Source of the DNA: a candidate division FCPU426 bacterium
GTDB lineage: Bacteria > Oederibacteriota > Muellerivitia > Muellerivitales > Muellerivitaceae
Direction: 5' to 3'
DNA: 64,000 nucleotides
Assembly (NCBI GenBank): GCA_963847625.1
Contig: CAWKAR010000019.1
Location: forward strand, 1-64,000
Under the pieces are notes generated by a model. That model searched no databases. It saw only the letters and a list, made by a program, of their open reading frames with translations, and was not told the origin of the DNA. This document shows positions 1-52,158 of this stretch, in pieces (the first letter of the stretch is position 1; each line of letters begins with the position of its first letter). Made by a program: the position numbers and the translations under genes.

Positions 1-103
1 TATGGGCCAGCAACCTACGTAGTAGCTTTGATCAATAGTAGCTGATCAAAATAACGCGGGTTGCTCCTGGTAAGGAGCCTATCCGCATACGGAGGGCTGA
101 CCC

Positions 104-1210
104 ATGGGAAATAATAGCACGGTGGTAGGGCTGGATGTTCATAAGGAAACGATCACGATTGCAGTTTTAAGGCCCGACAAGGATCGTCCTGATCCCTCGG
201 TTACGGTTGAAAATCAGCCATCAATCATTGAAAAGAAAGTACGGGAACTTAATCGCCGCCATGCCCCACTGGAATTCGTTTATGAGGCTGGGCCTGGGGG
301 ATTTGCTTTGTATAGGCAGATTACCCAATTGGGACACCCTTGTGCGGTGATTGCGCCCGCATGGATGCCGATGAAACCTGGGGACCGAGTCAAGACGGAC
401 CGAAAGGACGCAGAAAAGCTGTCTTGGTATTGGCGCATGAGGGATTTGAAAGAAGTCCGGGTACCCACGCCCGAAGAAGAATCCGTGAGGGATTTGCTGC
501 GTGTCCGGGAAGATGTTCTCGCAAACCAGTTGAGAGCCCGTCATCGGTTATTGAAATTCCTGCTTAGGCAAGGCCGGATTTATCGGGGTGGCAAACACTG
601 GACCCAAGCCCATAGGGAATGGTTGAGACACCAGAAGTTTGAGCTGCCAAATCTCGTAAAGACCTATGAAGCGAATTACCGAATTTTGGCTGAGATTGAC
701 GTGCACTTGGCTGATTTGAATTGTGAAGTTGAATTGCTGGCACAAGACGAGAAATATCGAATTGCTGTCAGCTATTTGAAATGCCTGAAAGGCGTTAACA
801 CACTCACGGCCATGACTTTATTAGCAGAAAGCGGAGATTTCAGGCGGTTTAAAAACGCCCGCAGTTATATGCGATATACGGGAATGGTCAGTTGGGAAGA
901 CAGCACCGGAAGCCATGTTTACCGGGGCGGGATTGTCAAATCCGGAAATGCCCATTTGAGGCGAGTGCTAGTCCAAGGGGCATGGACCTATCAGCTACGA
1001 AGCCTTGGGAGTCCAACACTCGCTAAACGGAGAAAAGGTTGTCCCCCGGAAGTTATACATTTAGCACGAAAAGCTGATGAACGTTTGCATTTGAAGTTTC
1101 GGCGGATGGTAAGCCGAAACAAACGGTCTCAGGTGGCGGTAGTGGCCATCGCACGGGAATTGGCTGGCTTTATCTGGGCGATTGGACAGATGATCCCATC
1201 CGATCAGTAA
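104..1210 (+). CDS. IS110 family transposase/recombinase
   Basis: N-terminal VGLDVHK, FVYEAG, KTDRKDA motifs (DEDD RuvC-like); C-terminal SWEDSTG...KSGNAHLRR..AIARELAGFIWA. Confidence 0.95.
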   Translation: MGNNSTVVGLDVHKETITIAVLRPDKDRPDPSVTVENQPSIIEKKVRELNRRHAPLEFVYEAGPGGFALYRQITQLGHPCAVIAPAWMPMKPGDRVKTDRKDAEKLSWYWRMRDLKEVRVPTPEEESVRDLLRVREDVLANQLRARHRLLKFLLRQGRIYRGGKHWTQAHREWLRHQKFELPNLVKTYEANYRILAEIDVHLADLNCEVELLAQDEKYRIAVSYLKCLKGVNTLTAMTLLAESGDFRRFKNARSYMRYTGMVSWEDSTGSHVYRGGIVKSGNAHLRRVLVQGAWTYQLRSLGSPTLAKRRKGCPPEVIHLARKADERLHLKFRRMVSRNKRSQVAVVAIARELAGFIWAIGQMIPSDQ

Positions 1211-1238: not shown

Positions 1239-1440
1239 GAGCTCTGATTTCAGGAGCGTGGCGCGGCACGGAGAACCCTCGACGACCCCTTGTGCAATGA
1301 AGTCTTATTTCATGACGCACGGACAAAGATCGAGGCAGCTCCCGACGACAGGTCATCATGCGTCCCTGCCCTTTGGGGTAATACGCGAATATCAGTTTGA
1401 TCAACCGTCGGAAATGGCTACGCTCTTGGAATCAGGGCTC
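1239..1440 (+). ncRNA. Putative bridge/seek RNA of the IS110-family element
   Basis: 24-bp enclosing stem (1239-1262 with 1417-1440) whose four non-Watson-Crick positions are all G-U on the + strand; it encloses two hairpins with internal loops; loop ATATCAG (1389-1395) equals the element's right end (1501-1507). Confidence 0.75.
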
Positions 1441-1641
1441 TGTCGTGCTGGTCCGTGAAAAGACCAACACCCTAGAATCTGAAGGTTGACTGGCCCATAC
1501 ATATCAGGGATCAGGTTTCCCGCGCTGCAGTATGGCGCAGGGCTTCGACAGGTTCGGGACAGGCCACCCATGTGGGCAGGACTTTCGGGCCTGCGGGCAG
1601 TGTTCCCGGGTTCCCGGCAAGGAGGAAAAAGAGAATGGATT

Positions 1642-2622
1642 TTAACCCTGCTTATCGAAATACTTCGCGGCTTCCTTGGCCCAGTAAGTGATGATCCGGT
1701 TTGCCCCGGCCCGCTTGATGGCCAAAAGGCTTTCGGCCATGGCGCCCTCCAAATCCAACCATTTCATTTTTCCGGCGGCCTGGATCATGGAATACTCGCC
1801 CGAAACGTGATAGGCCCATAAAGGGACCAGGAATTTCATCCGGGCCTTGGCGATAATATCCAGGGCCGTCAAAGCGGGCTTGACCATGACCACGTCCGCC
1901 CCCTCCTCGATATCCAGCTGAATTTCCCGGAGGGCCTCCCGCGCGTTGGAAACGGGCATCTGGTAGGTTTTACGATCGCCGAAAGCCGGAGTGGAATCCG
2001 CGGCTTCCCGGAACGGCCCGTAGAATTGGGATGAGAACTTGGCCGCGTAACTCAATAGGAGCGTGTTTTCCAACTTGTTCTTGTCGAGGACCCGCCGGAT
2101 GAAAGCCACTCGCCCATCCATCATGTCGGAGGGTGCCACGATATCCGCCCCGGCATGGGCATGGGATAGCGCGATTTTACCGAGCAGGGTCAGGGTCGAA
2201 TCGTTCTGGACGTCGCCCTTGGAGATAATCCCGCAATGGCCGTGGGAAGTGTATTCGCATGCGCAGACGTCGGTGATAACAACCAAGGTTGGCAATTCTT
2301 TTTTTAAAATCCGGACCGTTTTCTGGATGATGCCATTCGGATTATAGGCTTCCCGGGCCGCGGGATCTTTTTTCGATGGAATTCCGAATAAAAGAACCGC
2401 CTGGATTCCGAGAGTATGGGCCGAGGCCGCTTCCTTCACGGCGGATGAAAGCGAGTGCCGGTATATCCCGGGCATGGAAGGTATCGCTTCCGGGGTTTTC
2501 AACCCCTCCGCGACGAAAATCGGGAGAATGAAATCCCGGGCACTCAACCTTGTTTCCTCGAATAGGTTGCGCAGGCTTTTGGTTCTTCTCAATCGGCGCA
2601 TCCGGTGGATTGGGAAAGCCAT
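1642..2622 (-). CDS. hemB: Porphobilinogen synthase (delta-aminolevulinic acid dehydratase)
   Basis: RMRRLRR, DVCACEYTSHGHCG (Zn ligands), APSDMMDGRV, FYGPFREA, MVKPA motifs. Confidence 0.97.
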   Translation of the reverse strand: MAFPIHRMRRLRRTKSLRNLFEETRLSARDFILPIFVAEGLKTPEAIPSMPGIYRHSLSSAVKEAASAHTLGIQAVLLFGIPSKKDPAAREAYNPNGIIQKTVRILKKELPTLVVITDVCACEYTSHGHCGIISKGDVQNDSTLTLLGKIALSHAHAGADIVAPSDMMDGRVAFIRRVLDKNKLENTLLLSYAAKFSSQFYGPFREAADSTPAFGDRKTYQMPVSNAREALREIQLDIEEGADVVMVKPALTALDIIAKARMKFLVPLWAYHVSGEYSMIQAAGKMKWLDLEGAMAESLLAIKRAGANRIITYWAKEAAKYFDKQG

Positions 2623-2663
2623 GCTGATCCTTTCAAAATAAATTTTTCCCTAGGGAAGACGAA

Positions 2664-3482
2664 TTATATAACCCTTTGCCGGGATTTCCTTGCCCAAGCC
2701 GAAATGGCCATGGCAAAGGCGGGCATGGTGAAGGTTGTTGGTTGCACCGCTACTTTCATGCCCCATTTACGGACCGAGTTCGCGGTAACCGGGCCGATCA
2801 CTGCGACCGGAATGGCTTTTAACAACATCTTCCTTTGAACTGCGGTAAAGGATCCATAAAAATGATTCACGGCTGATGAAGAGGTGAATGTTAAAAGATC
2901 TACACTTCCTCCTTTAGTGAATAAATGCTGGAGTTTATTGCGGCTTCCGGCAGGAATCCGGTTTTTATATAAGGTTAATCGGGCAACCTTGACGTTCTTT
3001 TTCTTTAAGGACTTATAAAGAACATCCCTTCCCTCTTGGGCCCGGCAAAGTAAAATTCTCTTCCCTTTCAATGCCATTTTATTGAACGCCCTGGCCAAAC
3101 CTTCCTGGTGAAAATCCTTGGGCACCAAATCCGATTTCAAACCAAAAGACCTTAAAGTTTTTGCGGTGGCTTCCCCGGCACAAGCGATCTTAACTTTACT
3201 CAGACGCCGGATATTTTTTTTTAATTTTTTCCAATGACCCATGAAAAGTTGAACCCCATTTGAGCTGTTGAAAACCAACCAATCATATTCATCCGCTTTC
3301 GCGACGAGTTTTTGCCCTGCCTTGCCCAAAGGGAGAGGAACAATTTCCGATACCGGGATTTCAATAGCCTCAAACACCCGCTTATCCAGCAAACCCGTCA
3401 AATAACCCGCTTGGGATTTTGCGCGGGTCACGAGAACCCTCCATCTTCGCCGGTGTTGAAACTGGTTGTTTTTTCCTGGCAT
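2664..3482 (-). CDS. hemD: Uroporphyrinogen-III synthase
   Basis: VLVTR, YDWLVFNSSNGV, IACAGEATA, LTFTSSSAV, VAVIGPVTA motifs; immediately upstream of hemB. Confidence 0.9.
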   Translation of the reverse strand: MPGKNNQFQHRRRWRVLVTRAKSQAGYLTGLLDKRVFEAIEIPVSEIVPLPLGKAGQKLVAKADEYDWLVFNSSNGVQLFMGHWKKLKKNIRRLSKVKIACAGEATAKTLRSFGLKSDLVPKDFHQEGLARAFNKMALKGKRILLCRAQEGRDVLYKSLKKKNVKVARLTLYKNRIPAGSRNKLQHLFTKGGSVDLLTFTSSSAVNHFYGSFTAVQRKMLLKAIPVAVIGPVTANSVRKWGMKVAVQPTTFTMPAFAMAISAWARKSRQRVI

Positions 3483-4097
3483 CCGAATTTCCTTTAATTG
3501 TTGGTAAGTATCCCTTTACAACAAGTAAAAGCAAAAAGGCATGGAACCGCCGATCAAATCCAATGTCCCGCATCTCCATAAAGGAGTTAATGGATTGCGG
3601 GACAATACCACTTTCATTTGAAATCCTTTCAATAGTGAAGTGGCATGGACGCCGATAAGTTTGAGAAAGCCTTAAACTATAAGCCGTTATCGGCGTTTAT
3701 CGGTCGTTATCTGCGGTAAAAAAATTTCTTTACGTGTCGTGAAGGTATAGTCACCTTATTTATTTAGGTGAATCCACTAAGAATTATTGGATACGCCATT
3801 TTATGAGGTTAATATTGAAAAAAATAGATACGAAAACATTGTTGGAAATCCATGAATTACCGTCATTCCACAAGACGTTTTTCCGGCAAAAGACCCGAAT
3901 AGCTACGGTTTTATAGAGACCATCAGGAAGTAGCCCAATTTTCCATGTCGAATTGGAACCGCTTTCAATCTCGTTTTTAATTAACACGTGAAAGTTGAAA
4001 ATCATCCCGAAAAAAACCGGAACTATAATAAATCGGGTATATTCTTACTAAGAAAAAGCCATTTGAATAAAACAATATCTCAATATTAGGGAACCTC

Positions 4098-7000
4098 TTG
4101 AAAAGACCGGTCCTTCTCTTTTTCTCATACCTCTTTCACCATTTCTCCCCAACTGCTTTTAAAAATTTTATCCTTTACTGTTTTCGGATCGCAGCCCTCG
4201 GAATTTTTTTAATCTTCCTGCCCGAAAAATCCGTCTTTGCTGAATTGGCTACGCTTTACGTCTCTGGTAACCAGCTTACTACTTCCACCTCGGGCGGCTG
4301 TACGCTTAAATTAAAAGGTGTCAACATTGACGGGTTGGAGTTCTCGCCCTACGGGTATGGACCCGGAGGAAGCAGTTCCAATTGCGGGGGCTTTACCGGT
4401 AACAGCACCAACGGATGCGGTGGTAACACCCTGGCGGCGGCCCAGGAAGCGGTCACGGCCTGGCACGCCAATGTTATCCGGCTGCCCATGAACCAGGATT
4501 TTTGGTTTGGTTGCTCCAATTCGATCACCCAGATCGCCGCTTCACAATACCAGTCGGCCGTGTCCGCCATCGTCGGATATTGCGCCTCCAATAACGTTTA
4601 CATCATCCTGGATCTCCATTGGTCGGGCACCTCCAGCGGCACTACCTTTACCACTCCCTGCAGCGGGTCCGGCTGGGGTACGGCCACGGCGCAGGAAGCA
4701 ATGGCGGATGCCAACGCAGTTACCTTTTGGCAGTCCGTGGCCAGTATGTCCTGGACTAAGAATAACCCGGCAGTCATGTTCGACCTATACAACGAGCCCA
4801 CCAACATTACCGCGGCTTGCTGGGTGACCGGCGGTAGTACGGGCACGGGCAAGACACCCACCTGGACACCTGGAATGCAGGGACTTTTGGATGCCGTAAG
4901 GGGTGTGGGCGCCAATAATATCTGCCTGTTGGGCGGCTTGAACTGGTGTTCAAACCTGAAAAGTGTCCTCAGCGCCCCCGGACCCGTCACCAATACGGGC
5001 AATGGCGTCGTTTACTCGGCCCACTTTTATGGGCCCAATGACGGAACCACTCCCGTCAGTTGGAACGCGGACGTGCCATCAAGCGTCTTGTCCACCGCTC
5101 CTGTTTTCGTGGGCGAGTTTGGGGGAGCCACGACCTGCGGCACGGCACCGGATGACCCCACTTTCGATACCAATATGATCGGCACGTCGGGATGGGCAGT
5201 CACCACCACCGGGGTGGGGGGAGGCACCGGCTGGTCTTTCACCGATGATTCCTGCCCCAACATGCTTTCGGACTGGAGTTGGACTGCCAATGCCTGGGGT
5301 GCGGCCGTATCCACATGGCTGGCCACGCCTGTTCCCACCTGCCCCCCTGTCACCCCCGGCCCGACACTCACACCCACCCGGACTTATACCAATACCTACA
5401 CTTTTACAGTCACATCCACTTCCTCTTACACTTCTACCCAGACACGGACTCCCACCCTAACATCCACGAACACCGCAACCATTACACCTACTCCCACTTC
5501 GACCCGGACGAACACGCCTAACAATACACCGACTTATACGGTAACTAATACTTCCACGAACACTAGCACAAGCACCCCCACCCCGACCCGGACGAACACG
5601 CCCACGAATACCTCCACCCCGACGCCGACTTCGACTTTAACCAATACCCGGACCAATTCACCGACTAATACGGAATCCAGCACCTTCACAAATACTGCGA
5701 CTACAACGCCCACCCCAACCGCAACCCGGACAAACACGCCGACTTATTCAGTAACCAATACGCCTACGAATACCGCGACTGGAACAACTACCCCAACCCG
5801 GACGAACACGGCGACCAATACGTTCACGATTCTACCCACAAATACCCCAACCAACACTGCCACGAGCACGGCGACTTCCACCCCAACCGCAACCCGGACG
5901 AACACGGCGACTAATACTTTCACGATTGTACCCACGAATACCCCTACCAACACGGCCACGAGTACGGTGACAGCCACCTCCACTGCAACCCGGACGAACA
6001 CGCCGACCAATACGGTTACAACTACCTCCACGAATACCCCAGCCAACACGGCCACGAGTACGGTGACAGCCACCTCCACTGCAACCCGGACGAACACTCA
6101 AACGAATACACCTACGTCCACATTGACTAATACCCCAACGAATACAACCACAGCCACGCCGACGAATACTCCTTCCAGCACGAGGACGAACACGCCGGCC
6201 TCTACTCCCACCGCAACAGCTACCAACACTCCGACGCTGACCTCTACGGTCACTAGTACCAGCACAGGAACCACATCACCCACTTACACGAACACTCAAA
6301 CCCGTACGCAAACTCCAACGTCCACAAATACGGCAACTTCTACTCCTACTCCGACCCTTACGAACACATCCACCAACACGCCTACGGCGACACCGACTAG
6401 GACATTAAGCCCTACACCCACGAATACCCCACCCAACACTGCCACGAGCACAGCGACAGCTACTTCCACAGCGACTAGGACGAACACCCAAACAAATACA
6501 CCGACTTCTATACCCACAAATACTTCCACCTATACCAGAACGAACACTCCGACCTCTACTCCCACCCCAACAGCTACCAACACTTCGACGGTGACCTCTA
6601 CGGTCACTAGTACCACCACAGGAACCACATCACCCACACCCACTTACACAAATACCCCAACCCGGACCCAAACTCCAACCCCGTCGAATACGGGAACCTC
6701 TACCCCGACTCCGACGGTGACGAACACGTCCACCAGCACGCTTACTGCGACACCGACTAGGACATTGACTCCCACCTCCACGAATACCCCGTCAAATACG
6801 GCGACAGCCACGCCGACGAACACTTTAACCAGCACGAGGACAAACACTCCGACCTCTACTCCCACCCCAACAGCTACCAACACTCCGACGCTGACCTCTA
6901 CGGTCACTAGTACCACCACAGGAACCACATCACCCACACCCACTTACACAAATACCCCAACCCGGACCCAAACTCCAACCCCGACGAATACGGGAACCTC

Positions 7001-9353
7001 TACCCCGACTCCGACGGTGACGAACACGTCCACCAGCACGCTTACTGCGACACCGACTAGGACATTGACTCCCACCTCCACGAATACCCCGTCAAATACG
7101 GCGACAGCCACGCCGACGAACACTTTAACCAGCACGAGGACAAACACTCCGACCTCTACTCCCACCCCAACAGCTACCAACACTCCGACGCTGACCTCTA
7201 CGGTCACTAGTACCACCACGGGAACCACATCGCCCACACCCACTTACACGAATACCCTAACCCGGACCCAAACTCCAACCCCGTCGAATACGGCAACTTC
7301 TACTCCTACTCCGGCCGTTACGAACACATCCACCAACACGCCTACGGTGACACCGACTAGGACATTGACCTCCACATCCACGAATACCCCGTCGAATACG
7401 GCCACATCCACACCGACTGGCACTTTAACCAGCACGAGGACAAACACACCAACCTCTACTCCCACCCCAACAGTCACCAACACTCCGACGCTGACCTCTA
7501 CGGTCACTAGTACCACCACGGGAACCACATCACCCACACCGACTTACACGAACACCCTAACCCGGACCCAAACTCCAACATCCACAAATACGGCAACTTC
7601 TACTCCTACTCCGACCGTTACGAACACATCCACCAACACGCCTACGGTGACACCGACTAGGACATTGACCCTTACCTCCACGAATACCCCGTCGAATACG
7701 GCCACATCCACACCGACTAGCACTTTAACCAGCACGAGGACAAACACGCCAACCTCTACTCCCACCCCAACAACCACCAACACTCCGACGCTGACCTCTA
7801 CGGTCACTAGTACCACCACGGGAACCACATCGCCCACACCCACTTACACGAACACCCTAACCCGTACACAAACTCCAACCCCGTCGAATACGGCAACTTC
7901 TACTCCTACTCCGGCCGTTACGAACACATCCACCAACACGCCTACGGCGACACCGACTAGGACATTGACCCCCACATCCACGAATACGCCGTCGAATACG
8001 GCCACCATCACGCCGACCAATACCTTGACGGGAACCTCTACGCCCACCTTGACGAACACCTTAACCAGCACGAGGACGAATACGCCGACGGTGACGCCTA
8101 CGGTCACCAATACCAATACCGGGACTCAGTCGCCCACGCCCACTGGGACTAACACGTCCACCGTTACCAACACGCCGACCCGTACGCTGACCGGGACATC
8201 GACCCATACGCCGACAGGCACCCCAAGCGCGACAGCCTCCCAGACTCCAACAACTTCTTCGACATTAACTGGGACACTAACGCCTACGAATACCTCTACC
8301 CCGACCTATACGATGACAAATACACCGACGTCAGCCCCCACCAACAGCCCAACGAACACCCCTACTTCCACATTTACCAGCACTTCGACAAGTACCAGGA
8401 CCCTCACTCCCACGAGCACGCCTACCAGTACATTCACGAACACGTTATCTGATACGCCCACACACACGCCGACGAATACCTTAACGAGCACCCGGACGAA
8501 TACGCCGACGGCTTCGACTACAGCGACTCCAACGTCGTCGCCTACGCTCACCGCTTCGCCGACTCCAACTGTGACGCCTACAGTCACCAATACCAATACC
8601 GGGACTCAGTCGCCCACGCCTACTGCGACTAACACGCCTACGCTCACCAACACGCCGACCCGTACACTGACCGGAACATCGACCAATACGCCGACAGGCA
8701 CCCCGAGCGCGACAGCCTCCCAGACTCCAACAACTTCTTCGACATTAACTGGGACACCAACGCCTACGAACACATCTACCCCAACCCGTATGATGACAAA
8801 TACGCCGACATCAACCCCCACCAACAGCCAAACGGACACGCCCACTCCCACCTTTATCAGCACTTCGACAAGTACGGCCACACCCACGCCAACCCATACT
8901 GAGACGCCGGCGGTGACCGACACCCCAACGGCTACGTCCACAACCACTTTCACTTATACGAGGACATCCTCACCCACGGCGACTTTCACGGTCATCCCGG
9001 CTTCAACCCCAACGGCAACCTCAACAAACACTCTTATGGCCGCTTCGACGGGAACAGCGACTCCGGTTGGGAAAAATGGAGTGGTTGTATATCCAAACCC
9101 GGTAAGCGGCCCGGGCCCGGTGACGATCAGGATCACTTTGACCCGAAAGGAATCGCTTGTTCGGGTTGAGATATTCACGCTGGCCTTCCGGAAGGTGAAT
9201 GAGATCGATCTGACACAAGCGCCGGCGGGAATTACCAATGTGGCCTTACCCCTGACGGACAAGGGAGGAATCCCCCTGGCCGACGGCCTTTATTACGTGG
9301 TTGTCCAAACGTCCCAGAGCAGTATCGTCAATAAATTGCTTGTCTTGAGATAA
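4098..9353 (+). CDS. Secreted glycoside hydrolase family 5 (cellulase-like) with ~1250-aa Thr/Pro-rich stalk and T9SS type-A-like C-terminal domain
   Basis: Signal-like N-terminus; LKGVN, NVIRLP, ILDLHW, FDLYNEP (acid/base), [14 protein letters not shown] (nucleophile); (T-X)n region; C-terminal VVVYPNPV...[23 protein letters not shown] start uncertain. Confidence 0.85.
6541..8040 (+). repeat. Five in-frame ~300-bp (100-aa) tandem repeats within the Thr-rich stalk
   Basis: CGGTCACTAGTACCACCAC recurs at 6601, 6901, 7201, 7501, 7801; the first two periods are near-identical in DNA. Confidence 0.9.
8091..8880 (+). repeat. Second in-frame duplication in the stalk (480-bp offset)
   Basis: GTCACCAATACCAATACCGGGACTCAGTCGCCCACGCC at ~8103 and ~8583, with ~300 bp of similar downstream sequence. 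Confidence 0.8.
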
Positions 9354-30861: not shown

Positions 30862-33741
30862 TCAACGTGGATTTCCTGAAGGGATAACCATTCTTTCACT
30901 GGTTCGCAAGCGGTTTTGGTCCTTTTTAATCTTTTTAGTGAGGACTAAACCGGTTTGGGATCTGAGGTTTTCCATCACTTGGTTTACCGTGCCTGAAGCT
31001 ACTACCATTCCGCCTTCATCCCCACCTTCAGGACCCAGATCAAGGATGTAATCGGCTGTTTTAATTACATCCAGATTGTGTTCAATGATTAAAACCGTGT
31101 TTCCAGCCTCAACTAAACGTTTCAAGATTGAAATAAGATGGTGAACATCCGCAAAGTGAAGACCCGTGGTCGGTTCATCCAATATATATAAAGTTCGACC
31201 TGTACTGCGTTTTCCAAGCTCAGTGGAAAGTTTGACTCTTTGGGCTTCTCCTCCGGATAGAGTGGTTGCAGGCTGGCCTAGTTTGATATAACCCAAGCCG
31301 ACATCTCTCAATGTTTCCAAAATCCTCCTAATTTTTGGTATGGGCGCAAAAAAACTTAAGGATTCTTCAACACTAAGTTCGAGAATTTCTGAAATATTTT
31401 TCCCTTTATAAAGGATTTCCAGAGTCTCTCGGTCATACCGTTTTCCCTTGCACACTTCGCAAGGAACGAAAACATCGGGTAAAAAATGCATTTCAATCTT
31501 TATGACTCCATCCCCTTCGCAAGCCTCGCAGCGGCCGCCCTTCACATTGAAGCTGAAGCGGCCTTCCTTATATCCCCTGGCCTTGGATTCCGGCAAATGG
31601 GCAAATAAGTCTCGAACATGTGTGAATAAACCGGTATAAGTTGCGGAATTGGACCGAGGCGTGCGTCCAATTGGGGTTTGATCTATTACCACAACTTTAT
31701 CGAGTTTTTCAAACCCCTCCAAAGTTTCATAACCTTCCGGCTTGACCCGAAGATGGTAAAGCTTATGCATTAATGCCGGATAGAGTGTTTCCATTACTAA
31801 GGTACTCTTGCCGGAGCCGGAAACACCCGTTACCGCGTTTAAGCCTCCGAGAGGAAATTTAATTGTAATATTTTTAAGGTTGTTTTTCGTGGCGCCCTTT
31901 AAAGTCAAATAATGCTCGAACTTTTTTTCAGGTCCCAGATTGGGAATAATGAATTTTTGCCCTGAAAGATATTGGGCTGTGATGGAATTCTTACAGCTGA
32001 GAATGTGTTCCAAATTCCCAGAAGCTACCACCTCTCCGCCTGCCAAACCGGCTCCCAAACCCATATCGATGAGATAATCAGCTGATTCAATGGTATCCTC
32101 ATCGTGTTCAACCACAATCACTGAATTTCCGATGTCTTTTAAATGTCGTAATGCGGAAAGTAAACGCTCGTTATCCCTTTGATGGAGTCCGATGGAGGGT
32201 TCGTCTAGGATATAAAGCACCCCCACAAGAGCGCTCCCAATTTGAGTGGCCAAATGGATTCTTTGGGCCTCCCCACCGGAAAGGGAGGAAGTCATCCTTT
32301 CCAATGTCAGGTAATCCAAACCAACATTTTTCAAAAATCTTAATCGGGCAAGGATTTCCTTAAGAATTTGTCCGCCGACCATCCTGGATTTTTCGTCCAA
32401 TTTCAATTTCTCAAAAAACTCCAGGCATTTTTTAACCGAAAATCGGGTGATCTCGATAATATTTTTATTTTGAATTGTGACAGCCAGGCTTTCCGGTTTT
32501 AAACGAGTCCCCTGACAGGCGCGGCAGGGTTTACTGATTAAGTATTTTTCAATATCGTCTTGGATGGATTCAGAATCCGTTTCACGATACCGTCTTTCCA
32601 AGCTCGGGATAACCCCCTCGAAAGTGCCCCAATATCTTTGACGGTAATTTCCTTTTTGTATTTTAAATTCTATTTCCTCTTCTGTACCATACAGGATAGC
32701 TTCCTGTACTTTTCGTGTCATCTTTTTGAACGGGACTGTCATACTGACGCCAAAGTGATTGCAGACTCCTTCAAGAAGATTTTGGTAGTAAACCGCTTTG
32801 GGTGAATGATAGGGATCCACAGCCCCTTCGTTGATGGACTTTTCCGGATCGATGACCAATGACTCATCCGCTTCCATTTTGAAACCCATCCCCGTGCAGG
32901 CAGGACAGGCTCCATGGGGATTATTAAAGGAAAAATTTCTTGGAGCCGGTTCCTCAACGCTAAGACCACAATGGACACATGCGTAATGTTCGGAAAAAAG
33001 GTGTTCCTCTCTTTCGGAAGATGTTCCTTGAATGATCTTGACTACACCCCCTCCATACTTCAATGCCGTCTCAAGGGAATCAGCAAGTCGTTTTTTGACT
33101 TCGGGTTTCAATACCAAGCGATCAATGACTACTTCAATATCATGTTTTTTATTTTTTTCTAAAGGGATGTCTTCTTCCAGTTCAAAAATTCGACCGTCCA
33201 CGCGGACTCTGACAAAACCGTCTTTCCGGATTTGGTCAAAGTTCTTTTTGTATTCACCCTTCCGGCTTGAAACAATGGGAGCTAGGATGCTTAATTTAAC
33301 GCCTGGTGGAAGTGAAAATACTTGATCCACGATCTGTTGAACCGTCTGACGGCTGATCGGCCGTCCACAATGCGTGCAATGAGGAATACCAATACTGGCA
33401 AACAATAATCGAAGATAGTCATATATTTCCGTGGTCGTCCCGACAGTTGAACGTGGATTTTTACCTCCGGATTTTTGTTGGATAGCCACTGCGGGTGAAA
33501 GTCCTTCAATTAAATCCACATCCGGTTTTTCCATTATGCCCAGGAATTGCCTGGCGTAAGAGGATAGTGATTCGACATAACGTCTTTGGCCTTCAGCGTA
33601 AAGGGTATCGAAAGCCAGGGAAGATTTTCCGGAACCCGAAACCCCGGTTATGACCACCAATTCATCCCGGGGAATATCTACCGAAATGTTTTTAAGGTTA
33701 TGTTCTCTTGCGCCGCGAACAATGATTGTATTTTTTTTCAT
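30862..33741 (-). CDS. uvrA: Excinuclease ABC subunit A
   Basis: [10 protein letters not shown], two Walker A (GVSGSGKS), LSGGEAQR twice, zinc fingers. Confidence 0.98.
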
Positions 33742-33979
33742 GGATCATCCGAGAGCTGATTAAAAAGCAAAGGAATATTATGATCTTATCCCGGCCGTTT
33801 TTTCCACCCATCAGCATCTTTTTAAATACAATGGTCACTGAAAAGAAGAAAGGTTGCATTCCCGACTTCGTTTTTACACCCACAAAACCTTTGTTTTAAG
33901 CCTTTTCCTGGGGGGAAATTCTCATGCCAGCTGAATAATTTACCAAGTTTATTAAACTCTCGCCGAAAGGTTACAAGAA

Positions 33980-36079
33980 TTATTGGAATTGGCTTGCAGC
34001 TCCAGTTAAACCTTGATTCCGCATGCTGTTTATTTGTTGGATTTGTTGGGCTGAAACTGAAATGGGTCTTCCCGGGAAGGCTTTCAAGTTGAGGGTAAAA
34101 TACAATTGTTTTCCAGCATTGGGGTCCTCGGTATAGCTGAGTTGAGCCTCCCAATCATGCAAATCCCTATATATGCTTAAGGAGCGGGTTATGTATTTTG
34201 CATTGGTAAGGTCATAATTTTCTATCAATGCAAGCCGGTAGTTCGTGAAAAAAGCAAAATCCACTTCTCCACCGACTTGGAATGTTGGAAGAGCTCCGGA
34301 AGAAACATAACCGGTATTGCTAACGTTGGGATCCACGTAATTACCGTTAATTGTAAATCGCCACATATCACGGGGGCTCCTTAAGTTCAATACCGAGTTC
34401 ACGTCTTTCACAGCGTTGTCACGAACTGAATAATCCATAATGGCGAGATAATCGTAAAGTGTTGAAGGGGTTAAATAGATTTCCTGGCGCAGATAAGAAA
34501 GGCGGGAGGCTTCGGTAGCCACCTGGATGTTAAAATCATAGGACGAACTAGAGCGTATGCGAAACAGGCTTCCACCAGTAAATTCCAATGAACCCGTCAA
34601 GAGATTGGATGTGATCCCATGGGGCGGGTCGGTTGAACGCACATTATCGAGTTTCTGCGCAAAGGTATACCCTAAAGTTGAGGTGGCATATTCCGTCCAC
34701 CTTCCCGTCCATGTATTAGTAGCGTTTACTGTATGAGTTTCGCCCGAATTGGTTCCTGACACATCGGGCCGATCCTGGAAATTTTCATTCATCGCCACTC
34801 GTGAGAATAGGGTTTGGGTTTTATATAGTTGGACGCTTTGCCCCACGCCCAACTCTCCTGTCAAGTGGTCCACATAATAACCATCATTTAATGTATAGGT
34901 ATGGTCCCCCGCCAAGCTCAAATCCCATTTCAACCAATTACTCCCGATCAGGCGCTGTGGAAAAAGATTAAAATTGAATTGCGGAAGATTCTGCAGACTA
35001 CGAGTAAAATTGGTTTCGTTGGGGTCGTTAATCGTAAAATCGGGGTTTTCCTGGCGTCTGATCAGAAAACTAAACGTGTATTGGAGGCGGGTTAAAGTCG
35101 CCGAAAGGTCATATTCACGATACGTTGAAACCAAGCTCGGATCCCGCCGGGCAACTGAATAATCTTCGCTGAACAGCCCATCCTCCGGGTAGTCCACTTC
35201 CAACCGGCCTTGAAAGTTGGAAGAAAATGCCCATAGTCCCCTGGCCCTTGATTCCCAACGGAATCGGTGTGTGTCTTTTTCCTCTATTCCATATCCGTAA
35301 AGCGACAAGGCGGAATAATCATTTAAACCCAGTTCATGTCTTACGCCCAAGCCGAGTCCTTTTTTAAAAAAATAATCCGCATAGAGGGCGCCATAGCTGG
35401 TTGGATTAAAAAGATAACTTGCCGTATAAAGAAGGTAATTACCGAGGTAGTCCGTTTGACCAGTAGAAATGGAAAAAGGGGTCTTCAAATCATGGATGGT
35501 TCTCACAAAAAACGGAAAATAAAAAACGGGTACTTTCCCGATATAAAGCACCACATTTTCCGCCACTAAATAATCACCCGAATATATGGTGATCTTTCCC
35601 GCTTTCATGTAAAAGTGTTGATAACCTTCCGGGTAATCACAAGTGGTGGTCACCGCATCCTTGATAATTATTTTTTGGTCCTTAATATCGATTTCCGATC
35701 CTGTGCTGATCCAAGGTGGTGAAGTGGTTTTAATGTTAAAGGCCTTTCCTTCCTTGGTCTTCAGGTTGTAACTTAAACTTTTGGCCTCGATTTCATCGCT
35801 TACATTCTGCCAAACTACATGACCCGTAGCTTCCACCTCTTGTGCGGTCACGTCATAACGAATACTGTCAGCATATAAATTTACAGTGTCCTGCTGGATA
35901 TGGACCTGTCCTTTTGCCATAACGATATTCTGATCCCTCAGATACTCAATAGTATCCGCTTGCAAACGCACTTGGCCATTGAGGGAAAAAGTTAATTCAG
36001 CGTTAAGAACATAAGGATAGGTTATCCAAACCCATAATAATAAACCCGACCTGAAAAATATTTTTTTAAGGAAATTCAT
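33980..36079 (-). CDS. lptD: LptD-like LPS-assembly outer-membrane protein (start reassigned to MNFLKK, overlapping the lptF stop)
   Basis: N-terminal OstA-like jellyroll (LQADTIEY..AKGQVHI..LYADSI), TTC, LYIGKVPVFYFP, C-terminal RDLHDWE; adjacent to LptF/G. Confidence 0.7.
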   Translation of the reverse strand: MNFLKKIFFRSGLLLWVWITYPYVLNAELTFSLNGQVRLQADTIEYLRDQNIVMAKGQVHIQQDTVNLYADSIRYDVTAQEVEATGHVVWQNVSDEIEAKSLSYNLKTKEGKAFNIKTTSPPWISTGSEIDIKDQKIIIKDAVTTTCDYPEGYQHFYMKAGKITIYSGDYLVAENVVLYIGKVPVFYFPFFVRTIHDLKTPFSISTGQTDYLGNYLLYTASYLFNPTSYGALYADYFFKKGLGLGVRHELGLNDYSALSLYGYGIEEKDTHRFRWESRARGLWAFSSNFQGRLEVDYPEDGLFSEDYSVARRDPSLVSTYREYDLSATLTRLQYTFSFLIRRQENPDFTINDPNETNFTRSLQNLPQFNFNLFPQRLIGSNWLKWDLSLAGDHTYTLNDGYYVDHLTGELGVGQSVQLYKTQTLFSRVAMNENFQDRPDVSGTNSGETHTVNATNTWTGRWTEYATSTLGYTFAQKLDNVRSTDPPHGITSNLLTGSLEFTGGSLFRIRSSSSYDFNIQVATEASRLSYLRQEIYLTPSTLYDYLAIMDYSVRDNAVKDVNSVLNLRSPRDMWRFTINGNYVDPNVSNTGYVSSGALPTFQVGGEVDFAFFTNYRLALIENYDLTNAKYITRSLSIYRDLHDWEAQLSYTEDPNAGKQLYFTLNLKAFPGRPISVSAQQIQQINSMRNQGLTGAASQFQ

Positions 36080-49600: not shown

Positions 49601-52158
49601 GTAGGTGTATTCGTGCGAGTCGGCGTGTTGGTCGGGGTGTTCGTGGGCGATGTGGTGCCGGTCGGGCTGGGGGTCGGCGAAGGTGTATTCGTGGGCGTGT
49701 TGGTCGGGGTGGGCGTGGGGGTGATGGTAGGCGTGGGAGTCGGCGTGCGCGTGGGTGTGTTCGTCGGCGTATTGGTCGGGGTAGGAGTGGGTGTGGTCGT
49801 CGGGGTCGGCGTGGGTGTCCTTGTCGGTGTATTCGTAGGCGTGTTCGTCGGGGTGGGTGTGGGTGTGGTCGTTGGGGTCGGCGTGGGGGTGTTCGTAGGT
49901 GTGTTCGTAGGGGTATTGGTCGGGGTGGGAGTCGGGGTCGTGGTGGGAGTAGGAGTCGGTGTCCGAGTCGGTGTGTTCGTGGGAGTATTCGTCGGGGTAG
50001 GAGTGGGGCTTGTGGTAGGAGTTGGGGTCGGGGTGGGAGTAGGGGTTCTCGTGGGCGTGTTAGTAGGGGTCGGGGTTGGGGTCGTCGTCGGAGTCGGTGT
50101 TGGCGTGTTCGTGGGAGTCAGGGTAGGGGTATTCGTAGGCGTAGGGGTGGGCGTACGGGTCGGAGTGGGTGTAGGAGTATTCGTGGGTGTGTTCGTGGGG
50201 GTGTTTGTGGGTGTAGGCGTGGGGCTTGTTGTGGGGGTGGGTGTTGGCGTCCGGGTCGGGGTGTTTGTGGGGGTATTGGTTGGCGTGGGAGTGGGCGAGA
50301 CGGTCGGGGTCGGAGTTGGGGTATTAGTCGGGGTGGGTGTCGGCGTCCGAGTCGGGGTATTCGTGGGGGTATTGGTCGGCGTGGGAGTGGGCGAGACTGT
50401 CGGGGTCGGGGTGGGCGAATTCGTCCTCGTCGGCGTGTTCGTGGGGGTATTGGTCGGCGTGGGGGTGGGTGTGGCCGTCGGGGTCGACGTCCGGGTCGGG
50501 GTATTCGTGGGGGTATTGGTCGGCGTGGGGGTGGGTGAGACGGTCGGGGTAGGGGTCGGCGTCCTGGTCGGGGTATTCGTAGGGGTATTGGTCGGTGTGG
50601 GGGTGGGCGAGACAGTCGGGGTCGGAGTGGGCGTATTCGTCCGGGTCGGCGTGTTCGTTGGTGAATTCGTCGGGGTAGGGGTTAGCGAGGGGGTCGGTGA
50701 TGGTGTGTTAGTCGGAGTATTGGTGCGGGTTGGGGTGTTGGTAGGAGTGGGAGTATTGGTATAGGTATAGGTGTAAGTGTGGGTGAAGGTGGGAGTGACG
50801 GCTGGGGTCGGAGTATAGGTATTGGTGTTAGTGGGAGTGGGAGTATAGGTATAGGTATAAGTGTTGGTATGGGTGAAGGTTGGCGTGACGGCGATCGTCG
50901 GAGTGTAGGTGAAAGTATGTGTAAAGGTGGCCGTAAAGGTATTGGTGAAAGTGTTGGTGTGGGTGAAGGTGGGAGTCATGGCGACCGTCGGGGTATAGGT
51001 GTGAGTAAGCGTATAGGTGGGTGTTGGGGTATAGGTAAAGGTATGGGTGGGTGTGAAAGTATTGGTGTAGCAAGGGATGTTGAAGGTCACCGTGTTGGAG
51101 GTCTTCCCCCCCATGGTAAAGTTGTTGGTGGCCGTCGTGCATTGGTTGTTGACCAACCCGTTGTTGTCATAAGCGTCTTCCGTAAAGGTGACGCAGGAGT
51201 TTCCCGCAAACCCCTCCCCCCAGATGACGGAAATCTGGTTCCCCCCAACGCCGTTGACATAGGGCTCGGTGGCGATGTAATTCCCGTTTTGCACCGAAGC
51301 CCCGCCGCTCAGAAGCGACGTGGATTGCCAATAGCCCTGGCTGATCGTGTCTACCAGGGTGACTGAGGTCGTGGCAGGACCCCCTGTGTTGCAAACGGTC
51401 AGGCAGAACCCGATTGAGATGTTGTTGCTTCCGGACTGGGTGCTCGCCGCGCTGCAGATGGCTTTTCCGACCGTGAATGCCGGAGGGCCCAGGGTCGTTC
51501 CTGACGCCGGGATCGCGACGCCTTGGGAGAAAAACAGGGCCCCGTTGCAGTTGCTGGTGCTGTAATCCCCATTGGCGTCCGTCGATAAATAAGGAACTCT
51601 TGCGCCGCTCACGGGGTTCCAGATGCCCTGGCCCCAACAGCAATCCGCCGAAGTGGCACTGACCTGGGTCGGGCTGCCCCAGCCGCTGGTGCTGTAGTCG
51701 GTCGCGTACCAGTTGGTGGCGGGGGGAGTGGTGGGGTTCCCCGAGCTGATGTAATCCATATGGACGCCGCCGCTTCCGCTGGTGATCTCGGAATGCTGGC
51801 CGTTGGAACAGGTGATGTCCAGATCCCAGGAAGCGTAAAGGTTGTTGCAGGCGGTGTTTTGGGTGTAAACGCTGATGTAAACCTCGGACCCTGTCAAAAG
51901 GGATGTGGCAACAGTAAGACAACCCGGGGGACAACTGCCGCTACCATCCCAGTTGCAATAAGCCACTTGCCCCAGGTAAACGCCGCCAACATAGACCTGC
52001 GACCAGTCGTCGCTGGAAACGCAAATCTTGGCGGAACTCGGCGTGCATTGGGCCCAGGACTGAACTGGTATGCCCACAAGGAAGAAAAACCCAAGAACGC
52101 TTAAAACCAAACTTGACCGAGTTGAAGGCGAAGAAAGTTTGAATAACGAAATTTTCAT
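46621..52158 (-). CDS. Giant secreted protein: Cys-rich beta-sandwich head, DUF11-like domain, ~1400-aa Thr/Pro stalk, FlgD-Ig/T9SS-type-B-like C-terminal domain (start 52158 or 52200)
   Basis: Signal peptide ending [30 protein letters not shown]; (TP/TN)n; [34 protein letters not shown]. Confidence 0.8.

Follow-up and report, generated by a model that had tools for sequence, protein, structure and literature searches.

The insertion sequence and its recombinase

The window, i.e. the entire 64,000-nt stretch that was analyzed, is the start of contig C19 of the genome (G000). This contig begins 8 nt inside an insertion sequence, and the left flank of this copy is therefore invisible. Nine full-length copies of the element with an intact gene are present in the genome. 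They are 99.7-100% identical, which points to recent movement. The features of the element outside its predicted RNA are as follows.

8 nt before position 1: first base of the element, the left end being taken from other copies
1-10, plus strand: portion of the left subterminal inverted repeat that lies in the window; the full repeat has 13 bp, starts 3 nt before position 1 and was read from other copies
104-1210, plus strand: intact IS110-family DEDD recombinase, 368 aa (D11, E61, D99, D102)
1486-1491, plus strand: -35-like hexamer TTGACT, half of a predicted junction promoter
1490-1502, minus strand: right subterminal inverted repeat, 13 bp and perfect, followed by the 3-nt extension ATC (1503-1505)
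1506-1507, plus strand: AG core of the right junction
1508-1515, plus strand: right target flank GGATCAGG, deviating once from the guide (at +3) and once from the consensus of the TIRtron repeat

The recombinase matches the profiles PF01548, PF02371 and NF033542 (the last with 204.6 bits at a cut-off of 140) and combines a DEDD RuvC-like domain and a Tnp domain in a single protein, as is diagnostic for the IS110 family. At least 7,565 homologous proteins were found; the only structurally solved relatives matched were ISCro4 (E = 1e-10) and IS621 (E = 6e-7). In the finger motif EDSTG (residues 265-269, window 896-910), T268 aligns to the position of the catalytic serine of IS621. This site reads SG in 82 and TG in 20 of 120 homologues, and TG has been described for IS1111 proteins (Siddiquee 2024, PMC11187229).

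Insertion is sequence-specific and oriented at a 2-nt core, with AG and one consensus at nine left and nine right junctions. Beyond the subterminal repeats, the left side has AG and 5 nt, and the right side has 3 nt (ATC) and AG. Noncoding DNA extends for about 295 nt downstream of the gene versus 111 nt upstream. Joining of the ends in a circle would give TTGACT-17-TAGCAT, with TAGCAT contributed by the left end, as a predicted junction promoter; no promoter-like site was found in the linear positions 1-1700. Based on this sequence and on knowledge of the family, the element may form a circle whose junction creates a promoter, and this promoter would transcribe the recombinase gene together with the RNA behind it. 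An end-to-end joint was not found in the contigs of four DNA runs aligned to one copy, a type of data that cannot show absence. The sequencing runs listed as carrying the element include none of RNA.

The stop of a hemB gene directly adjoins the element (window 1642-3482, minus strand, hemD upstream). The window also contains, at 4098-9353, an ORF of 1,751 aa with a very long Thr/Pro-rich repeat, whose N-terminal region, judged by eye, may be that of a glycoside hydrolase. An isolated, diverged left-end fragment (94% over 66 bp) without a gene behind it lies at G000:C39:about 50395-50470.

A predicted guide RNA in the right end

The region behind the recombinase gene is predicted to encode a bridge/seek RNA with the following parts, all on the plus strand.

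1236-1444: entire predicted RNA, in which a long closing helix encloses two guide domains; the same in 9/9 copies
1270-1342: target-binding domain (hairpin 1)
1284-1290: 5' arm of the target loop, GACCCCT, pairing with the core and the right target (+1 to +5) on the top strand
1321-1328: 3' arm of the target loop, GGACAAAG, pairing with the left target and the core on the bottom strand; covariation in the family is confined to -1 and -2
1329-1330: putative handshake AT, a dinucleotide with which the left end also begins, assigned by analogy to IS621
1343-1410: donor-binding domain (hairpin 2)
1355-1358: short 5' arm of the donor loop, in which ATC pairs with the core G and left-end positions +1 and +2, and A1358 mismatches the core A
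1389-1395: 3' arm of the donor loop (ATATCAG), which has the sequence of the right end plus core; the following TT (1396-1397) mismatches the G at target +1

The initial annotation had described a 24-bp stem of 1239-1262 with 1417-1440. This stem consists of 20 Watson-Crick and 4 G-U pairs, and the predicted helix extends further to 1236/1444. The elements assigned to hairpin 1 (CCTCGA at 1277-1282, TCGAGG at 1330-1335 and the loops CGACCCCTT at 1283-1291 and GGACAAAGA at 1321-1329) and to hairpin 2 (CGACG at 1343-1347, CGTCG at 1406-1410) are all present. The same holds for ATATCAG, which occurs in the hairpin 2 loop (1389-1395) and at the right end (1501-1507), and for the right junction AGGGATC at 1506-1512. 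The six-base stem proposed for hairpin 1 has to be shortened, as the stem of the family is CCTCG/CGAGG and A1329-T1330 behave as guide ('handshake') bases.

The G-U pairs of the long stem had been taken to favour a plus-strand RNA. In the window this is the case, with z = -4.5 (0/200 shuffles as good) for the plus strand versus z = -1.5 (14/200 as good) for the minus strand, but the tendency does not extend to the family. Of 102 RNAs (98 from metagenomes, four from genomes), only 52 were more stable by folding energy when read as the plus strand, so that this energy by itself does not assign the strand across the family. When 37 RNAs were aligned, 94.6% of the cells paired, with a covariation score of 0.177 compared to 0.072 after shuffling. 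Compensatory changes occur in the inner stems; the invariance of the outer stems is partly due to the search pattern, which fixed them. The minimum-energy fold of the window sequence contains an extra helix in the donor loop (1351-1355 with 1398-1402), and weak pairs partly close the target loop. Comparison with the Rfam families gave only a chance-level hit (E = 4.6), and the RNA pattern had no match in viral contigs. A predicted non-coding RNA with target- and donor-matching loops, another hallmark of the IS110 family, is present at the level of the sequence, as judged by covariation.

Covariation of the target loop with the insertion site

According to the initial annotation, hairpin 1 is the target loop, hairpin 2 the donor loop and AG the core. 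All three assignments are backed by covariation. The annotation also predicted that the left flank should end in ACAA-AG. Nine left junctions were readable, seven belonging to full copies, one to a left-end fragment and one to a copy at a contig end. Six of them end in this way and all nine in A-AG. Compared with the guide, the core AG matches in 9/9, A at -1 in nine, A at -2 in eight, C at -3 in seven, A at -4 in seven, G at -5 in three and G at -6 in four junctions. The nine right junctions match at +1 to +5 in 9, 9, 8, 9 and 8 cases. Across the family, covariation of the proposed left guide GGACAA is restricted to -1 and -2. The C at -3 was more frequent at occupied (7/9) than at empty repeat-like sites (2/10; p = 0.023), in target-repeat flanks that are A-rich anyway.

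A pattern scan of metagenomes yielded at least 120 loci, of which 113 were parsed and seven dropped. Among the matches listed, complementarity between the 5' arm and the right flank was seen in 52, 52, 52, 47 and 35 of 55 distinct guides at +1 to +5 (shuffled: 15-20) and was at chance level at +6 (18/55). In register, 203 of 220 positions agree, versus 58-73 when the arm is slid. Agreement between the 3' arm and the left flank is seen at -1 in 23 and at -2 in 24 of 25 cases and falls to chance at -3 to -5 (8, 6 and 3 of 25), again among the matches listed. No consistent second register appeared in the off-diagonal cells of this set of listed matches. Since related loci are not independent, all covariation figures are counts and not probabilities. 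The initial annotation had considered that loops and flanks might not covary in homologues; in fact the loops covary with the target and with the ends. This covariation supports a model in which the first loop would pair with both target strands around the AG core.

Natural retargeting, i.e. other guides accompanied by matching flanks, was found in a 92%-identical relative (G051), in the six-copy element of G067 and in a second element of the present genome (50%). All six G067 copies (L037-L048) are located in one long repeated intergenic sequence that is unrelated to TIRtron ends. The linker from the core complement to the inner stem has two bases in most relatives and one base in the element studied here. 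Arms ending in CCTT fit a correspondingly shifted register in 7/8 cases, ordinary arms in 0/50. The shift occurs in two places on the recombinase tree and is absent from the 92%-identical relative. Together with the mismatched donor handshake described below, it suggests that the element was retargeted recently. Two further pairings were rejected. An extension of the guide via a bulge gave 11 matches of arm +6 to flank +7 compared to 13 after shuffling, and pairing of the stem CCU with an AGG flank was dropped as CCU, unlike AGG, is nearly invariant in the family.

Putative handshake bases and predicted order of strand exchange

In IS621, the guides comprise 9 nt in the 5' arm and 4 nt in the 3' arm, and after the first exchange the 3' arm takes up the incoming donor core and two further donor bases (Hiraizumi 2024, PMC11208158). 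A putative equivalent of this handshake was found here. Among the matches listed, the two RNA bases following AG are those with which the left end begins in 35/35 and 34/35 RNAs, the dinucleotides (RNA/left end) being TC/TC in 25, AT/AT in eight and AC/AC in one of the 35, with one miss. Among genome and plasmid loci, agreement extends to both bases in 11/22 and to the first base in 19/22. On a tree of 55 recombinases (three of 58 were dropped), the left-end dinucleotide changes six times, the RNA dinucleotide nine times and both jointly ten times. About five changes thus coincide, which is modest support for a handshake whose signal is clade-confounded. For the counterpart in the donor loop, identity with target +1 was found in 29/55 (shuffled 20.5) and identity with left-end position +1 in no more than 2/35 (shuffled 9.4), both among the matches listed. 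In the element studied here this counterpart is TT and mismatches its own target GG.

The left core is AG in 26/26 elements. The right core is AA in 7/26, with TT in the 5' arm wherever the arm was found. Counter-cases are L094 and L187, which have a TT arm and an AG junction, and L062 with a CT arm and a GG junction. Invariant left and varied right cores fit a donor-derived left core, a target-derived right core and exchange of the bottom strand first.

Like IS621 (Durrant 2024; Hiraizumi 2024, PMC11208158; PDB 8wt6), the RNA has the target loop first and the donor loop second, a CT core (on the bottom strand here) whose first base is variable, a long 5' guide, a 4-nt 3' guide and an AT handshake. 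In contrast to IS621, it is located in the right instead of the left end, its guides are set to the other strand with respect to the gene, long subterminal repeats take the place of those of 2-3 bp, and the protein is distant (E = 6e-7). A left-end RNA, a bottom-strand guide in first position and subterminal repeats of 2-3 bp, which characterize IS621-type elements, were all absent; the element would work like IS621 in mirror image and is not a member of that type. The sequence data support the view that the guide layout is that of IS621 on the opposite strand, with a long 5' guide, a short 3' guide with two handshake bases and the bottom-strand core CT. Such a mirrored layout implies that the bottom strand would be cut and exchanged first. 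Single-strand integration has been reported for another IS110 element (preprint 10.1101/2025.10.25.684509).

The guides might also be real without the chemistry being a mirror of IS621, if the top strand is exchanged first or if the mechanics of IS1111-type elements differ, which the text of Siddiquee 2024 (PMC11187229) leaves open. The solved relatives ISCro4 and IS621 are both distant and the handshake signal follows clades, which leaves room for this explanation. Four features nevertheless fit the mirror, namely the order of the arms, their lengths, the position and partner of the handshake, and the asymmetry between left and right cores. In addition, the 5-versus-3 terminal extensions around the core are the 7-versus-5 donor asymmetry of IS621 (Hiraizumi 2024, PMC11208158) in flipped form. 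A different chemistry is considered unlikely. No statement on a handshake or a mirrored layout in IS1111-type RNAs was found in published text, to which the search was confined; Extended Data Fig. 10c of Durrant 2024 may show the layout. The seekRNA paper contains an open remark on the reversed order of the guides (Siddiquee 2024, PMC11187229), to which the family data give a testable answer, namely an identical geometry that is read from the opposite strand and includes a handshake.

TIRtron terminal repeats as the target

When the count starts at the core G, seven of the nine right junctions are an exact fit to GGGGWSAS. This is the consensus of the terminal repeats of TIRtrons (Di Nocera 2013, PMC3733652; Quentin 2018, PMC6006769), which together with TIRYT correspond to TnpA-Y1 subclass 2.1 in Quentin 2018 (PMC6006769). 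Three copies of the element adjoin Y1/RAYT genes: two inverted copies are located at both tips of a TIRYT gene, and the third directly before a homologue.

G000:C24:100257-101201: TIRYT gene, 315 aa (PF01797, E = 4e-13; NF047646 above cut-off)

This locus combines a Y1 gene, a C-terminal DnaA-like helix-turn-helix, for which the Bac_DnaA_C score of 26.2 bits is below the cut-off of 31.5, and flanking inverted repeats that fit GGGGWSAS. From these sequence features, the target is the terminal repeat of TIRtrons and related repeats, an identity that the initial annotation had missed. The guide would accordingly address the outer tip of these TIRtron repeats, as well as that of related repeats that lack a TIRYT gene. 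L063, an independent relative from a metagenome (89%), likewise adjoins a Y1/RAYT gene, and the same repeat type follows a diverged right end in a contig of another run. No statement on TIRtron targeting by IS110 or IS1111 elements was found in a literature search that covered the text of freely accessible papers. The text of Di Nocera 2013 (PMC3733652) has no mention of IS110 or IS1111, and the single mention of IS110 in the text of Quentin 2018 (PMC6006769) is unrelated.

The inverted pair brackets the TIRYT gene as a composite unit (G000:C24:98553-102728, L174), and a 125-bp left-end fragment, whose own left flank matches the guide, directly precedes its first copy. A close relative in G049 (L038, 84% over 135 aa) is cut off beside a reverse-oriented TIR-like repeat, which suggests that TIRtron ends also rearrange the insertion sequence. 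A third, distant IS110-family element (29%) is present at G000:C21:17653-18522, C30:41099-41968 and C14:19772-20641; a TIR-like repeat lies about 250 bp before its C21 copy.

Insertion into the terminal repeats of another mobile element is shared with the IS1111-type elements IS4321 and IS5075, which reportedly target Tn21's terminal inverted repeats. Their repeat belongs to the Tn3 family, whereas the TIRtron repeat is that of an HUH (Y1) enzyme gene.

Site preference beyond the guide

All nine right junctions have AG at +6/+7, where the guide predicts GT (found in 0/9). Among exact A-AG-GGGTC sites outside ORFs of at least 150 aa, AG follows at these positions in 7/7 occupied versus 10/47 empty sites (Fisher p = 1e-4). 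Fourteen sites without AG that have one mismatch to the 13-nt guide target are all empty, two of them being tRNA-gene-like by eye, while poorly matching left flanks were used at two sites (C39 and C55). The preference for AG therefore exceeds what the guide or an intergenic position accounts for. A motif at +6/+7 that is fixed in the family was rejected, as AG occurs in only 5/55 cases among the matches listed.

These findings would be explained if the RNA is necessary and not sufficient and the element lands only where the TIRYT protein or the structure of the repeat opens the DNA. Such assistance would add to the two-loop mechanism and not replace it. The AG at every occupied site, the fourteen empty sites alongside used sites with poor left flanks, and a family devoid of both a fixed motif and bulged pairing are in its favour. 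The copies, however, are not independent, as two of them lie on either side of a single TIRYT gene and a number of them have their repeat type in common. The pattern could be mimicked by selection against insertions into promoters, tRNA genes and short genes, which the ORF mask counts as intergenic, relative L107 has AAG instead of AG, and a protein contact specific to the clade may be involved. Assisted landing is rated as decidedly unlikely, and the AG preference may reflect selection, the lack of independence between copies, such a protein contact or help by TIRYT. The joint case, in which a second mobile element gates site choice by opening the DNA (through TIRYT or repeat structure) and exchange follows the bottom-strand-first mirror of IS621, is more doubtful still. 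If it were true, the element would represent helper-dependent homing, and the 'reversed' order of seekRNAs would be unified with that of bridge RNAs. Besides the answer on the order of the guides, specialists may find interest in an element that parasitizes TIRtron ends with a preference beyond its guide.

The donor loop

Covariation of the donor loop was assessed in genome and plasmid loci because the search pattern had fixed this loop in the metagenome set. From 45 loci, 26 were parsed by end geometry alone and 19 were dropped, as they had no subterminal repeat, a partial gene or no match. The mis-parsed rows L175 and L183 (wrong right end) and L022, L179, L184 and L187 (wrong loop register) were retained. 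With these six rows included, 3' arm and right end agree at -3, -2 and -1 in 20, 19 and 20 of 24 loci (shuffled: 15.3, 10.6 and 12.2). Arm and right end vary together in five variants (ATATC, ATAAG, ATGAG, ATCGG and ATAAC), and the 5' arm tracks three left-end types. The 5' arm of the element studied here is the weakest guide, because it has only three Watson-Crick pairs and is partly located inside a predicted helix (three to four bases pair). The covariation supports pairing of the second loop with the joined ends of the element, after which the recombinase would join target and donor at the core.

It is conceivable that hairpin 1 is the sole guide, that the protein reads the ends via the subterminal repeats and that ATATCAG in hairpin 2 is conserved but dispensable. 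An 82-nt RNA of ISEc11 with target matches is enough for movement (Siddiquee 2024, PMC11187229), the donor 5' arm pairs over merely three to four bases, and the subterminal repeats are long and perfect. A dispensable hairpin 2 is difficult to reconcile with the joint changes of the 3' arm and the right end in five variants or with the 5' arm tracking three left-end types, and in another IS110 element the full RNA is reported to be needed for circle formation (preprint 10.1101/2025.10.25.684509). This makes a single guide very improbable. That the fold is just a terminator or chance structure and the flank matches are coincidence is hardly credible: the lack of an Rfam match and a folding energy that does not favour the plus strand in the family would allow it, but the flanks covary position by position with dozens of distinct guides, the stems show compensatory changes, and the slid controls argue against mis-parsing as the source of the match.

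A short inverted repeat (TTTGATCA ... TGATCAAA) is located at window 27-51 in the left end, and its arm recurs in the donor loop at 1396-1404. This match is probably due to chance because the second element of the genome and that of G067 have unrelated hairpins there.

Relationship to known elements

It is very likely that the locus is an RNA-guided insertion sequence that has been active recently, belongs to the ISSso6/ISEc45/ISCARN28 branch of the IS110 family and has IS1111-type ends and a two-loop mechanism. The recombinases of ISSso6 and ISEc45 are 36-37% identical over 98-99% of its length, and their loci show the same end geometry and a right-end RNA. ISCARN28, compared by eye only, has the YEAGP and K-T-D-R-x-D motifs in common with the recombinase. 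Compared to this branch, the guides and the target differ, and the linker after the core complement has one base here instead of two. The RNA of ISCARN28 was already predicted in 2024, among six published bridge-RNA examples (Durrant 2024, PMC11208160). The element itself is thus unsurprising, as the mechanism has been known since 2024 and the RNA of its branch was already predicted. It is of value as a clean test case, being intact, present in nine copies and readable in its guides, with a 92%-identical retargeted relative and thousands of homologous proteins.

The IS1111 seekRNA elements ISEc11, ISPa11, ISKpn4 and ISPst6 resemble it in the RNA region behind the gene, natural retargeting among relatives, a junction promoter (predicted here) and a top-strand guide before the bottom-strand guide. 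Differences are the length of the recombinase (330-350 aa there, 368 aa here), the clear donor-loop covariation found here and the RNA, which is a prediction here. IS1111 elements are described by subterminal repeats of 11-13 bp, extensions of 7 and 3 bp and a transposase of 330-350 aa (Siddiquee 2024, PMC11187229). The element has perfect 13-bp repeats, extensions of 7 bp on the left (AG and 5 nt) and 3 bp on the right (ATC), a long downstream non-coding region and a top-strand guide (1284-1290) 5' of the bottom-strand guide (1321-1328); its transposase of 368 aa is outside the range. The recombinase is 24-26% identical to those of IS4321 and IS5075, over residues 4-296 only, and ISSso6, ISCARN28 and ISEc45 are located outside the IS1111 block in an identity table, which is a hint only (Siddiquee 2024, PMC11187229). 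As the protein length deviates and the placement of the clade is tentative, the element is filed as IS1111-like and strict membership is not claimed. Judged from its sequence, it is a member of the broad IS110 family that works like an IS1111 seekRNA element.

The second element of the genome belongs to the same branch (50% protein identity) and has two copies, at G000:C13:about 3588-5105 and G000:C3:about 32588-34105 (minus strand). Its donor-side RNA is the same, and its target guides differ and match its own flanks.
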